Positions 31,005 to 46,839 of a stretch of 64,000 nt of DNA are shown one piece after another. Source of the DNA: Candidatus Daviesbacteria bacterium (lineage in GTDB: Bacteria > Patescibacteriota > Microgenomatia > Daviesbacterales > UBA10151); the NCBI GenBank assembly GCA_016176465.1, contig JACOXD010000004.1, forward strand, positions 114,119 to 178,118, written 5' to 3'. A model generated the notes under the pieces. That model searched no databases. It was given only the letters and a program-made list of their open reading frames with translations, and was not told the DNA's origin. Every line of letters begins with the position of its first letter. The stretch's first letter is position 1. The translations under genes and the position numbers were made by a program.

Positions 31005-31427
31005 TTACTCAGAAATGTTAAATTTATTTTCAAGAAAACATCGAATTAAATTTTTAGTGGCGGGAAATAGGTTTTGAGGAATCTTTTTGATATCTACCCA
31101 TTGCCATTTTTCCCAATCTTTAGGTTTGAGCAGTTTTATTTTACCTTTAATATTTGCTATTAACCCAATACCGATATAATGATTATTGAACTCATAATTT
31201 GCGTTCACTGAGATAATTTTGTAATTTATTACTTTGCAACCTATCTCTTCTTTAATATTCCTTTTGACAGCCTCACCAATACTTTCGTTGAACTTTAAAT
31301 CTCTTCCCGGAACCCCATAAACTTGTGTATTTTGATATAGCCACTCTTTGGTCAGAAAACCAAGCAATACTTTATTGCCTTTCTTAACCAAAATATCAAC
31401 ATTAACTCTTGGGAGCTTGGGGCTCAT
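31005..31427 (-). CDS. NUDIX hydrolase
   Basis: A Nudix-box-like segment GVPGRDLKFNESIGEAVKRNIKEEIGC (a variant of Gx5Ex7REuxEExGu). Confidence 0.5.
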   Translation of the reverse strand: MSPKLPRVNVDILVKKGNKVLLGFLTKEWLYQNTQVYGVPGRDLKFNESIGEAVKRNIKEEIGCKVINYKIISVNANYEFNNHYIGIGLIANIKGKIKLLKPKDWEKWQWVDIKKIPQNLFPATKNLIRCFLENKFNISE

Positions 31428-31470: not shown

Positions 31471-31887
31471 TTACCAATCGCAATAAAGTGATGTTGTATC
31501 GAGTTTTGGACTCTGATCATGCTGCGGACTTTCCGTTGTTACAACCTCTAAGTGCTCAACTAAAGACCTAGCCACCCCAAAAGGCAACTCTGCTAGATCT
31601 TGTTGATGGGCAATTGGTCTATAGGCAATAGGTCTGGTCGAATCTTGTGGAACTTCTCCAACTCCAAGTACACAATTTGTGACTTCTGTTAAAACTAGAG
31701 GCTGATTTGGGTCGCTAGCTAATCCTCTTGGATATCTAAAAAGCCAAACCACTGCACTGTATCTTCTACCATCTGCGCTAAACTCACCTAAATTTATAGA
31801 TCCTAAAAGACTTCTTGGCTCTTCAAAACTCAAAAAAGTCCTAGCTCCTTCTAGTTTTCCGAATAATTCTTCTATTTCACTTACCAT
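31471..31887 (-). CDS. Hypothetical protein (138 aa) in a region of elevated GC
   Basis: An intact ORF with the SD AAGGGGG 6 nt upstream. It has no recognisable motifs. An intrinsic terminator lies immediately upstream of it. Confidence 0.35.
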   Translation of the reverse strand: MVSEIEELFGKLEGARTFLSFEEPRSLLGSINLGEFSADGRRYSAVVWLFRYPRGLASDPNQPLVLTEVTNCVLGVGEVPQDSTRPIAYRPIAHQQDLAELPFGVARSLVEHLEVVTTESPQHDQSPKLDTTSLYCDW

Positions 31888-31911
31888 TTATTTACCCCCT
31901 TTCAAAACATA

Positions 31912-31938
31912 AAAAAACCTCTCCTTTAAGGAGAGGCA
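31912..31938 (-). terminator. Rho-independent terminator (perfect 9-bp stem CCTCTCCTT/AAGGAGAGG followed by T7) on the minus strand
   Basis: Minus-strand sequence GCCTCTCCTTAAAGGAGAGGTTTTTTTATG. It sits 25 nt upstream of the start of ORF 31471..31887, in the geometry of an attenuator or the end of a small RNA. Confidence 0.55.
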
Positions 31939-32110
31939 TAAAAAAATTGTTTTCCTTCGATTTCTCTCAGGACTAATCCTTCCCTTACAGGGTTGGGTTT
32001 AGCACCTTAGTTTACTGCTAGGTTGCTGGATGGATCATCAGGCCAAATCCTGCGTCCTTCATAGCTTTACGCAAAGAAGGATCTCCCCATCACTCTTGAT
32101 TTATTTAAAT
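31939..32110 (-). ncRNA. Candidate structured RNA or riboswitch-like leader (unclassified)
   Basis: A non-coding tract of about 170 nt with GC content well above background and multiple internal complementary segments (ATCCT..CCTTC / GAAGGATC, CTTTGCGTAAAG, GGTGCTAAACC..). It ends at the intrinsic terminator. The class could not be assigned by eye (not obviously tRNA, tmRNA or RNase P). Confidence 0.3.
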
Positions 32111-32164
32111 ATATAAAATAATCTTACATCTAGTTATTTATTCTGTCAAACTAAACTTAATTTC

Positions 32165-32725
32165 ATGAGATTTTTTATTGCTTTAGAAATCCCTGAGGAA
32201 AGTAAGCAAGAGCTAAAGGTTATCCAATCTCAGATTAAAGAAATTATTCCTCAAGTTAGGTTAACCGATAATGATAAGCTACATTTAACCATTACCTTTA
32301 TTGGTGAGCAACCGGAGAATCTTAAAGATAAATTAATAGAGCTTATCAATAATTCTGTTGTTGATATTTCACCCTTTATCGTAACTCCAGCACTTATAGA
32401 TGGATTTCCCAATATTCACAATCCTAAAATTTTATGGATTGGTATTAAAGGAGATATAGATAAAATACTTTTAATCAGGGAGCGGATAAAAGATAGTTTA
32501 GCTAGTTTAAATTTAGATGTGGATATCAGAAGATTCATTCCTCATATCGCTGTAGCAAAAGTTACAAATTTTAAAATTTCTAAGCTGCAGGAAGCTCAAA
32601 TACAAAAAATTATGCAAAAAGAGTTTGAACCAATTAAAGTAAAATCAATTAAACTTTTTGAATCAGTACCTAATCTGGGTTTTCACAAACATAATACCTT
32701 AGCAGAAATCTTTTTAACCTCTTAA
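32165..32725 (+). CDS. 2'-5' RNA ligase / 2H phosphoesterase (LigT/ThpR family)
   Basis: Two H-x-T/S-x motifs (HLTITF and HIAVAK) about 80 aa apart in a 186-aa protein. Confidence 0.55.
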   Translation: MRFFIALEIPEESKQELKVIQSQIKEIIPQVRLTDNDKLHLTITFIGEQPENLKDKLIELINNSVVDISPFIVTPALIDGFPNIHNPKILWIGIKGDIDKILLIRERIKDSLASLNLDVDIRRFIPHIAVAKVTNFKISKLQEAQIQKIMQKEFEPIKVKSIKLFESVPNLGFHKHNTLAEIFLTS

Positions 32726-32774: not shown

Positions 32775-34196
32775 ATGTCTATATACACTCTGGAAAGTGA
32801 AAGAGCTTCACCCTACAACCGAGTAGGGAAAGACCCCTTAAGGTATTTTAAAGATTTAAGTTTGGCTGTTTTAGATCAGTTGATCACCCCCGAGGGAATT
32901 TTCGCCTCTACTTTTAAAGGCCATGAGGGTATCTTTTATGGTAGATTCCGAAGAGACAGTGCAAAAATTGCCAAATTCGTCTTAGCAGCCCTGCCTAATC
33001 ATTCAGCAAAACTTATTTCCAACACTGTGGATGGATTTTTATGGTTAGATCAATTTCGAGGTAAACAAAACGTTTCCAAACGAGGGGAGGAACAAGATAA
33101 AGAACCTCATGAAGTCCGCTCCCCAGGGTACTATGATCATTTAACAACTGGTAGGGTAAATCAAAGACAAAAACCTTTTTTTGTTGATAAAAGCAGCGGA
33201 TTTATGATTAACTGGGATAGTGTTGATGCTACCCCTTTAGCCGGTTTAATTAGGTGTGAATTTTTGAATTTAGGATTGGTTGATCCCAATGAACAAATCC
33301 CACTTTTAAAAAAAAGCTTAGAATGGTCCTTAAGAAATCTCCACGAAAGTAGTGGATTTCCCGGTTTTGCTTATAATCCCAGGCGTCCTTATGCTTGTTT
33401 GCCTAATCAACATTGGGCAGATAGTGAATTTACAATGTATCATCGTGATGGCCGCCCCGCTGCTTACCCTCGCAAACCTGTTGAAGTGGCAGGTTATACC
33501 TGGGCATTTTTTCTCCATGGGGCGGACCAGCTAGATCGAGAAAACCACCAACATACAGACCATGCTTTTGCAAAAAAATTAAGAGTTGTGGCAGCTGACC
33601 TTAAGAAAAGATTTAATAGTCCGCAAGGATTTTTAATGCCTGATAATAAAGTCGGAGCATACTTTGCTGAGTTTATAGATGGAAATGGGCAGCAAGGAAC
33701 TAATGTTACTTCTCAAGTAGGTTTGGGAATGAGTTTTACCTATCAAGGTGAGTCAATAGTTGAGGAGAGATATCTAGCTTCAACTGTGGCAAGAATTATG
33801 CAACCTGATCTATTTGATCCAACTGCAGGTCTGAGAATTTATAGTAATGAAGAAAGTACTACTTTTGATCCAGATGGCTATCATAGCTCATCCGATACTT
33901 ACTGGCCTTTTGAACCTCCTTTAGTAGCAATCGGTTTTGAGCAATTACAATTTGAGTCAGAGGCTAAAAATTTAATGCTTTCAATTTTTCCTCCAATTAC
34001 CCATTTTGGTTGTTGTATAGAGCAATTTCGCGTGAGAAATGGAATTTATGATCGCTTTAGGAACTCCCAAACTGGTCAAACCAGCTCTACTGATCAAGGA
34101 TGGACAGCCGCTGGTTTATATTATGCTGCTACCCATCCTTTGGTCAGAGAGTTTTTTGCTTCCTTAAGACCCCAACCTCACCTCTTTGTTGCTTAA
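32775..34196 (+). CDS. Hypothetical protein (473 aa), possibly an (alpha/alpha)6-barrel glycoside hydrolase-like enzyme, in a region of elevated GC
   Basis: A Trp/Tyr-rich composition (WADSEF, GYTWAFFLHGADQ, DTYWPFEPPL) reminiscent of six-hairpin glycosidases. No firm motif assignment. Confidence 0.3.
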   Translation: MSIYTLESERASPYNRVGKDPLRYFKDLSLAVLDQLITPEGIFASTFKGHEGIFYGRFRRDSAKIAKFVLAALPNHSAKLISNTVDGFLWLDQFRGKQNVSKRGEEQDKEPHEVRSPGYYDHLTTGRVNQRQKPFFVDKSSGFMINWDSVDATPLAGLIRCEFLNLGLVDPNEQIPLLKKSLEWSLRNLHESSGFPGFAYNPRRPYACLPNQHWADSEFTMYHRDGRPAAYPRKPVEVAGYTWAFFLHGADQLDRENHQHTDHAFAKKLRVVAADLKKRFNSPQGFLMPDNKVGAYFAEFIDGNGQQGTNVTSQVGLGMSFTYQGESIVEERYLASTVARIMQPDLFDPTAGLRIYSNEESTTFDPDGYHSSSDTYWPFEPPLVAIGFEQLQFESEAKNLMLSIFPPITHFGCCIEQFRVRNGIYDRFRNSQTGQTSSTDQGWTAAGLYYAATHPLVREFFASLRPQPHLFVA

Positions 34197-46334: not shown

Positions 46335-46839
46335 TTACTTTTTCCCCTGGGGCAGGCTTAATAATTATATGACGGTTAATCCCTTCACCTAAACTTTCTG
46401 ATTCTACACCTTCAGTGCCAGAAATTGTTAGATGAATTACTCTTCTTTCCCAAGCAGGCATTGGTTCAAGCTCCATTTGCTCACTTGTTTCTATCACTTT
46501 TTGCGCCCAAGCTCTAGCCTTATGAGCTAAATCTTCCTCTCTTGATTTTCTCCAATTAGAAACATCAATGACCACTTTTTTAAATTCTTCTCCTTCTTTG
46601 AGGGATTTTGCTAAAATTTGATTAACTATTAGCTGAAGGGCAGATAAAGTCTCTCCATGCCTGCCTATTAATTTACCAGCATCGATAATCTCAATAGAGG
46701 CAGCTATATAATCGGCGCTTTCTTCAACCTCAAATGAACCCTCAAGCGAGAGTAAACCTAATATATTTTCTAAAATCTCAGAAACTTTATTTTCGTAGAA
46801 AACCTTATTCTCCATGAGAACCTCCTTTTCCATTAACAC
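46294..46839 (-). CDS. jag: Jag/KhpB-like RNA-binding protein (KH + R3H domains)
   Basis: Conserved position immediately downstream of yidC. KH-like IAASIEIIDAGKLIGRHGETLSALQLI and R3H-like LEPMPAWERRVIH. Confidence 0.6.
   Translation of the reverse strand: MLMEKEVLMENKVFYENKVSEILENILGLLSLEGSFEVEESADYIAASIEIIDAGKLIGRHGETLSALQLIVNQILAKSLKEGEEFKKVVIDVSNWRKSREEDLAHKARAWAQKVIETSEQMELEPMPAWERRVIHLTISGTEGVESESLGEGINRHIIIKPAPGEKVNEKSSKKVTSKGS

Follow-up and report, generated by a model that had tools for sequence, protein, structure and literature searches.

Organization of the ORF138 locus

We examined a 64,000-nucleotide (nt) stretch of a Candidatus Daviesbacteria genome (GenBank assembly GCA_016176465.1, contig JACOXD010000004.1, positions 114,119 to 178,118), hereafter the window, in which a structured RNA leader precedes a gene for a hypothetical protein of 138 residues, open reading frame (ORF) 138 (31471..31887, minus strand; coordinates are those of the window). 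A gap of 277 nt separates ORF138 from the divergent ligT/ThpR gene (32165-32725, plus strand). Within this gap the minus strand carries, from 5' to 3', a promoter-like site, a structured stretch of about 135 nt, a 20-nt hairpin, an A/U-rich linker and a terminator. ORF138 is followed after 43 nt by a NUDIX hydrolase gene (31005..31427, minus strand), which has its own Shine-Dalgarno sequence and forms the second gene of the operon. We conclude with high confidence that the leader is an S-adenosylmethionine (SAM)-I, or S-box, riboswitch that controls both genes by transcription attenuation. The class and its mechanism are already known; the novelty lies in a recurrent, previously undescribed helical insertion at the kink-turn of the aptamer.

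The region had originally attracted attention as unusually GC-rich non-coding sequence. Upstream of the terminator it is indeed non-coding and richer than its surroundings, albeit only moderately so, with a G+C content of 45% in the aptamer and 41% over 31912-32110, against 34.6% in the whole window. A minus-strand promoter had been anticipated near 32110-32150, and a consensus scan found TTGACA-17-TAAGAT at 32149-32121 (10 of 12 consensus matches), with the -35 hexamer TTGACA at 32144..32149 and the -10 hexamer TAAGAT at 32121..32126. Transcription would then begin near 32114, about 9 nt before helix P1 of the aptamer. TTGACA-type promoters were also read at the equivalent spot upstream of the relatives' riboswitches described below. 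The suggestion that the region might serve solely as the ligT promoter did not hold, as ligT is divergent and encoded on the opposite strand. In the intergenic region shared by ligT and ORF138, the scan detected no promoter on the plus strand.

The leader aligns with the SAM-I riboswitch family

Rfam model RF00162 (SAM-I) aligned over its full length (positions 1-108 of 108) at 32105-31971 on the minus strand. The match scored 34.6 bits, with an E-value of 3.7e-6 in a local search and of 5e-4 across the whole window, where it was the top match. It surfaces only in E-value mode and not at the Rfam default; at the gathering threshold, no Rfam family matched anywhere in the 64-kb window. The original prediction had named the lack of an Rfam hit as grounds for abandoning a structured leader. 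That lack is real at the default threshold, where it would nevertheless lead to a wrong rejection, the RF00162 match being found in E-value mode. SAM-I was the best-scoring member of its clan for the window, and an overlapping clan match of lower score was dropped. Other weak Rfam matches, among them an L10 leader, a PyrG leader and a CRISPR repeat, were dismissed since they cover only the terminator hairpin.

The alignment to RF00162 displays the signature motifs AUCAAGAG, GCAACC, GGUGCUAA and GAAGGAU. The aptamer as a whole (31971..32105, minus strand throughout) is delimited by this match and by covariation. The 5' strand of P1, AAUAAAUC (32098..32105), pairs with GAUUAGUC (31971-31978) through four invariant pairs, one mismatch and two outer pairs. 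P2a is formed by GAUGG (32087..32091) and CCAUC (32029-32033), and P2b (32039..32052) by CAGG/CCUG closing the loop AUUUGG, whose UUGG (32043-32046) contributes the pseudoknot's 5' half. P3 (32001..32027) bears the conserved ligand-pocket motifs GCAACC and GGUGC, identified from the Rfam alignment and its invariant columns. It is followed by J3/4, AAACCCAA (31993..32000), in which CCAA (31993-31996) supplies the 3' half of the pseudoknot and C31997 pairs with G31979. The P4 hairpin CCC-UGUAA-GGG (31982..31992) was placed by the Rfam alignment and by RNAalifold.

The leader thus shares with SAM-I/S-box riboswitches (RF00162; for example those of Thermoanaerobacter tengcongensis metF and the Bacillus subtilis S-box genes) the P1-P4 four-way junction, the complementary P2-loop/J3-4 pseudoknot, the G.A/A.G kink-turn consensus in P2 and a terminator/antiterminator platform whose antiterminator strand comes from the aptamer's 3' side; relatives of the leader precede metK. 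It departs from the textbook form in its P2a of 5 base pairs (bp), its short P1 and P4 and its sub-threshold score, in its host, a bacterium of the candidate phyla radiation (CPR), and in its genes, which encode an orphan 138-residue protein and a NUDIX hydrolase. The SAM-I/IV (RF01725) and SAM-IV (RF00634) families of the same Rfam clan share a SAM-I-like ligand pocket. Unlike these, the window copy keeps the kink-turn consensus and holds P4 inside the junction with a SAM-I-type pseudoknot.

The motifs AUCAAGAG, GCAACC, GGUGC and GAU, shared with SAM-I, make up the pocket and are invariant across an alignment of 15 sequences. In the 2006 T. tengcongensis structure, conserved pocket bases of P1, J1/2 and P3 reportedly contact SAM. 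The window aptamer would be expected to bind the same ligand.

Relatives of the leader and covariation of the core fold

Relatives were sought in a collection of genomes and metagenomes with a pattern for a long P2, ATCAAGAG-N34-64-TTGGC-N15-GCAACC-N8-38-GGTGC. The scan returned 21 matches, eight of which (L016-L018, L021, L022, L025, L026 and L032) were discarded by inspection as chance. The remaining riboswitches lie on contigs labelled Daviesbacteria, Nomurabacteria, Falkowbacteria or Parcubacteria, on unlabelled metagenome contigs and in one metagenome-assembled genome labelled Gammaproteobacteria. Because its fixed spacing is the one that these lineages show, the pattern gives no measure of the insert's frequency outside them. 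The Gammaproteobacteria-labelled sequence (L019, CAZJNI010000001.1, 'uncultured Gammaproteobacteria') has a riboswitch core near-identical to those of Daviesbacteria in an AT-rich context, and its label may be a binning or labelling error.

Covariation in relatives had been proposed as a check on the leader and was found. Fifteen distinct aptamers, comprising the window copy and 14 relatives mostly from contigs labelled CPR, were aligned with the insert excised (alignment A3). When the SAM-I structure was imposed on A3, 94.2% of cells formed standard pairs and 14 of 28 pairs carried changes at both bases. The observed values were not reached in any of 500 column shuffles, and sliding the 3' partners reduced pairing to 24-47%. 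Compensatory changes were present at all five pairs of P2a, in which 100% of cells were paired, and at three of the four pairs of P2b. The pair closing J3/4 to J4/1 (C31997-G31979 in the window) is CG in 10 sequences, AU in three and UA in two. P1 was weak in this test, with four invariant pairs and one covarying pair. The UUGG/CCAA pseudoknot was complementary in 15 of 15 sequences and never varied; an initial assignment of the pseudoknot to UGGC/GCUA was rejected on the strength of the alignment. RNAalifold, run unguided on seven unedited aptamers, predicted P2a, the inserted helix described below (T helix), P2b, P3 and P4, with 12 pairs compensated. The maintenance of helices by compensatory changes implies purifying selection on the fold.

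A terminator and a putative antiterminator

The leader ends in an intrinsic terminator (31911..31936, minus strand) consisting of the stem-loop CCUCUCCUUAAAGGAGAGG (31936-31918) and a U7 tract (31917-31911). The original prediction of a perfect 9-bp stem followed by T7 on this strand was correct: in CCTCTCCTT-A-AAGGAGAGG (31936-31918), two arms form a perfect inverted repeat (9+9) about a single base. Sterically, it would form 8 bp with a 3-nt loop (-11.8 kcal/mol), and the consensus scan places it at 31937-31917. Its position ahead of ORF138 was also as described, although the T run ends 23 nt, and not 25 nt, before the ATG at 31887.

The segment AAGGGAAGG (31978..31986), comprising the 3' half of P4, J4/1 and the first base of the 3' strand of P1, is complementary to the terminator 5' strand CCUCUCCUU (31936-31928) with one A.C mismatch (-7.2 kcal/mol) and constitutes the 5' strand of the antiterminator. 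In 16 leaders with a terminator found by script, the terminator 5' strand complements P4-3'/J4-1 and the two segments change together, as in L015 (GCGCAGAAAG with CUUUCUGCGC) and L014 (AUGAGGA with UCCUCA). The antiterminators of L011a and L005a are perfect 7-bp duplexes. In L010, where the script returned no terminator, the pairing of GCGAAGAGG with CCUCUUCGU was read by eye. This complementarity between P4/J4-1 and the terminator is the classic S-box antiterminator design. The Shine-Dalgarno sequence GGGGG (31895..31899), located 7 nt before the ATG by reading the sequence, is not sequestered by the riboswitch, placing control at the level of transcription. Of the two options raised in the original prediction, the transcription-attenuating riboswitch was the right one, the Rfam match and covariation identifying it as SAM-I with a terminator/antiterminator platform.

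In the mechanism we propose, transcription would initiate at the sigma-70-type promoter (32149-32121) and the nascent RNA would fold into the SAM-I four-way junction of P1-P4 (32105-31971), with the pseudoknot between the P2 loop and J3-4 and a SAM pocket built from P1, J1/2 and P3. Binding of SAM would lock P1 and P4 and render AAGGGAAGG unavailable, whereupon the hairpin and U7 would form and RNA polymerase would stop before ORF138. When SAM is scarce, AAGGGAAGG would instead pair with CCUCUCCUU as the antiterminator, allowing transcription of ORF138 and the NUDIX gene. In vivo, the element would presumably act as an OFF switch.

Genes downstream of the riboswitch and its relatives

ORF138 corresponds to the NCBI hypothetical protein HYS91_01615 (Candidatus Daviesbacteria bacterium) and belongs to an orphan family of five members. 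An exhaustive HMMER search of 1.84 billion representatives with ORF138 returned three real relatives and one spurious repeat protein, and a profile search added a fourth, P0006, from Daviesbacteria; the five proteins have 15 invariant positions in common. No match to ORF138 was obtained in Pfam, NCBIfam or PHROGs, or among PDB sequences (best E-value 1.4). Its AlphaFold model, built from five sequences, comprises a helix, a four-stranded sheet and a helix at moderate confidence (predicted local distance difference test score 72.9). A Foldseek comparison of this model with the PDB returned nothing at E<=0.001. The NUDIX neighbour is not conserved in the relatives, and tblastn found neither metK nor other riboswitch-linked genes in the 64-kb window.

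All four other genes of the ORF138 family have a SAM-type aptamer upstream. Those preceding P0006, P0004 and P0003 are reported by cmscan; that of P0002 (L011, 607-770) was recognised by sequence reading and motif parsing, cmscan being silent at E<=0.1. In L012, the riboswitch is followed by a 104-residue ORF, an ORF138 homologue and metK, the last identified by all three S-AdoMet synthetase domains of Pfam. The riboswitch of L014 precedes a 380-residue ORF read by eye as MetK, and the genes downstream of those in L020 and L023 have, by eye only, the look of a pyridoxal phosphate-dependent enzyme and an adenosine deaminase, respectively. The OFF logic, together with the metK neighbour in L012, suggests that ORF138 may be needed when SAM is low.

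In L005, L006, L007 and L011, a second SAM-I riboswitch lies directly after the ORF138 homologue and before another unannotated gene. In this tandem layout (L005 1395-2360; L011 607-1500), the second gene starts MSNKEGGYDVCVIADYGVGDPAF and has no Pfam match, and a separate terminator-type switch serves each gene. In L005, the gene that follows the second riboswitch was read by eye as a SAM hydroxide adenosyltransferase, a candidate that was rejected as Pfam gave no support. Elsewhere, insert-bearing riboswitches precede proteins of 73-139 residues (L024 3061-3423, L029 8447-8866, L027 832-1092 and L019 5453-5674, all on the riboswitch-carrying strand). BLASTP detected no evident similarity of these to ORF138; the L024 and L029 proteins are homologous (40% identity).

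A helical insertion at the kink-turn

In the insert-free leaders L005b, L007b and L012, P2 consists of P2a, G-G-A, AGG, the loop AUUUGG, CCU, GAU-GA-U and P2a', which is a standard SAM-I kink-turn. Motif parsing, with the nomenclature of PMC4316175, assigned the window kink-turn's non-bulged strand to G(3n) G(2n) A(1n) (32084..32086) and the bulged strand to A U G(1b) A(2b) U(3b) (32034..32038). The GGA of the non-bulged strand matches that of L005b and L007b, and AUGAU or AUGAC is found in every relative retaining G-A on the opposite strand. Directly after A1n and ending before the C helix, the window carries an insertion of the form GA-UCCUUC...GAAGGA-CG-C (32083-32053 plus C32052). Its third helix and linkers (32053..32083) read GA-UCCUUC-UUU-GC-GUAAA-GC-UAU-GAAGGA-CG. 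In the RF00162 alignment, a stretch of 48 nt inside P2 stands where the model has 12.

The insert is present at the same position in 13 distinct leaders. Insert sequences are unrelated and range from 19 to 54 nt, with one hairpin or, in L011a and L023, two. The window insert alone folds at -10.4 kcal/mol (z -2.8), and each of the inserts folds by itself with z-scores of -2.4 to -4.4, except for that of L006b (-1.06). In the subclass nearest the window (the window itself, L024, L011a and L020), four of eight insert stem pairs have changed at both bases without loss of pairing. In one subclass of inserts, the conserved architecture runs from a 6-bp stem through a 3x3 internal loop and a GC/GC stem to an A-rich apical loop of 4-5 nt. 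Single-hairpin inserts also go with a further pair: in 11 of 11 such leaders, a C (a G in L027) preceding AGG is paired with L1, formerly a loop base, as in CAGG/CCUG. In three of four insert-free leaders an A.G mismatch occupies this position.

The consequence of the insert for the Rfam score is illustrated by L005b and L006b (L005 2154-2274 and L006 2154-2303), which are identical over their shared 260 nt save for a 29-nt insert. L005b, which lacks it, scores 44.6 bits, and L006b, which carries it, 25.9 bits; we therefore attribute the sub-threshold score of the window copy to its insert. All insert-bearing relatives scored fall between 23 and 43 bits, below the Rfam threshold, so routine annotation does not report them. 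The L006b insert is flanked by an 8-nt duplication, UGGGGAAG, and L011b has a different hairpin at the same place. L005 and L006 are contigs of one Daviesbacteria population, and the discrepancy between them may reflect a polymorphism, arisen by insertion or slippage, or else the assembly.

The kink-turn itself varies among the relatives. In L010, L020, L011a and L005a, GGA/GAUGA is replaced by AUAG or GU opposite UCAAG, CUAAG or UUAAU. L010, L019 and L027 score best against the SAM-I/IV model, whereas the window copy scores best as SAM-I. With these replacements and best scores, the lineage seems to span the boundary between SAM-I and SAM-I/IV.

Comparison with known k-junctions

In the usage of the Lilley laboratory, the term k-junction denotes a kink-turn expanded into a junction that retains the tandem G.A pairs (PMC4005666, PMC10573300). 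This topology has so far been described for TPP (thiamine pyrophosphate) riboswitches, ribosomal RNA and DUF-3268. By this definition, and at the level of sequence, the insert turns the SAM-I kink-turn into a three-way junction with k-junction topology. The tandem G.A/A.G is retained in the window, with G2n-A1n at 32085-32084 and G1b-A2b within AUGAU (32038-32034), and both the position of the insert (after A1n and before the C helix) and its covarying helicity are those of a k-junction insertion. As in known k-junctions, the former L1 base can pair with a lower-strand base. The window, with G at 3n and U at 3b, also fits the rule published for ion-induced kink-turn folding (PMC4382518). The TPP k-junctions differ from it in having a bulge between G1b and A2b, where the window has none; the window linkers (GA before the helix and CG after it) are likewise different, and its third helix is dispensable in close relatives. 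The junction may adopt the kinked k-junction geometry; we regard the chances that P2 forms a true k-junction as about even. If it does, this k-junction would sit in a riboswitch class whose kink-turn has been called simple and standard (PMC4316175).

Alternative explanations for the leader and its insert

Several observations weigh against a working SAM-I riboswitch in the window. Its score of 34.6 bits lies below the RF00162 gathering threshold of 44.4 bits. P1 is short and A-U rich, with only its four inner pairs solid, and the pseudoknot, being invariant, gains no support from covariation. The folding energy of the region is not significant (z = -1.62; equalled or surpassed by 10 of 200 shuffles), so the case for structure rests on homology and covariation. 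Nothing recognisable connects ORF138 with the metabolism of sulfur or SAM. Furthermore, no other antiterminator of the set is as weak as that of the window, whose -7.2 kcal/mol compares with -11.8 kcal/mol for the terminator. Folding of the whole leader favours the terminator conformer over the forced antiterminator by about 5 kcal/mol, even without ligand. Energetics alone thus do not demonstrate switching. With the terminator form favoured thermodynamically, either switching would have to depend on kinetics, the usual case for riboswitches of this type, or the window copy would be leaky or biased towards OFF. A drifted SAM-I-like fold, whether a leader that has degenerated, does not switch and terminates constitutively, or one responding to another ligand (S-adenosylhomocysteine or a SAM analogue), would agree with the sub-threshold score, the weak antiterminator and favoured terminator form, the unknown function of the regulated gene and the loss of the G.A kink-turn consensus in L010, L020 and L011a. 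We nevertheless consider such drift improbable: all pocket motifs are invariant in 15 divergent sequences, compensatory changes maintain the helices, which implies purifying selection, the insert accounts for the score deficit and relatives precede metK. Still less probable, in our view, is an independent small RNA ending at the terminator (resembling 6S RNA, signal recognition particle (SRP) RNA or another species) in place of a cis-acting leader, the other option of the original prediction. The leader's own promoter and its strong terminator 23 nt before the gene would indeed release a discrete RNA of about 200 nt at each termination. However, no 6S, SRP or other small RNA model matched, either at the gathering threshold or at E<=10, and the leader shares its fold, a four-way junction, and its invariant nucleotides with SAM-I. 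In every case a gene of the same orientation follows the element directly, and the antiterminator complementarity is sensible only for a cis-acting switch; the small RNA reading is already largely refuted.

The nature of the insert within this SAM-I riboswitch is far more evenly contested. Riboswitches tolerate non-conserved stem-loops termed 'variable insertions' (Barrick and Breaker, PMC2258182), and the P2 hairpin may be a neutral example, for instance a product of slippage or duplication that merely sticks out of the helix without forming a true k-junction. This explanation is equally economical, and we put its chances only just short of even. The wide spread of lengths and sequences, from 19 to 54 nt in one or two hairpins, would be natural for such insertions, as would the presence or absence of a hairpin between otherwise identical copies, the 8-nt duplication around the L006b insert and the lack of G.A pairs in some insert-bearing relatives. 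Neutrality accounts less readily for the fact that, on contigs assigned by label to several CPR lineages, the insert recurs at one precise phosphodiester, the very site that defines a k-junction (PMC4005666). The insert is also accompanied by a new C able to pair with the former L1, as in the TPP k-junction (PMC4005666), and one subclass preserves the internal architecture of the insert.

Implications for a possible SAM regulon in CPR bacteria

A wider interpretation combines these observations. The window would hold a natural k-junction in SAM-I, one case of a CPR-associated hot spot at which hairpins of differing sequence have been gained and lost at the kink-turn, and would belong to a SAM regulon made up largely of small orphan proteins (the ORF138 family and the proteins of 73-139 residues in L019, L024, L027 and L029), perhaps carrying out steps, so far unrecognised, by which ultra-small bacteria dependent on a host acquire methionine or SAM. 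We offer this tentatively, its chances being somewhat below even. A lineage-specific model would recover the regulon in organisms whose regulation is almost unknown. The riboswitch can also serve as a functional label, implying that ORF138 and several small orphan proteins may be wanted at low SAM and giving a testable handle on unannotated proteins. The SAM-I kink-turn is a standard test bed of kink-turn biophysics; a natural three-way-junction version with insert-free twins would be a ready-made system in which to ask what a k-junction adds to ligand-dependent folding.

Other features of the window

The ligT ATG at 32165 has no obvious Shine-Dalgarno sequence (32127-32164, plus strand). Just downstream of ligT, a 473-residue ORF (32775-34196, plus strand) matched nothing in Pfam or NCBIfam. 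ARAGORN found no transfer RNA or transfer-messenger RNA in the 64-kb window, and the sole other weak Rfam match in it was rivX at 46543-46620, which with its 27 bits (threshold 100) is probably due to chance.

Between the aptamer and the terminator lie the A/U-rich linker AAACAAUUUUUUUAU (31938..31952, minus strand; identified by reading the sequence), with similar tracts in L012, L010 and L020, and the spacer hairpin UCCUGAGAGAAAUCGAAGGA (31953..31972, minus strand), which overlaps the last 2 nt of the 3' strand of P1. The spacer hairpin occurs once in the window. Its exact 20-mer recurs within the P3 stem of the L005a riboswitch (L005 1468-1487), and near-identical copies come after P1 in L012 (about 103-122) and L005a. 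Rich in G-A steps, this hairpin has the appearance of a portable module.

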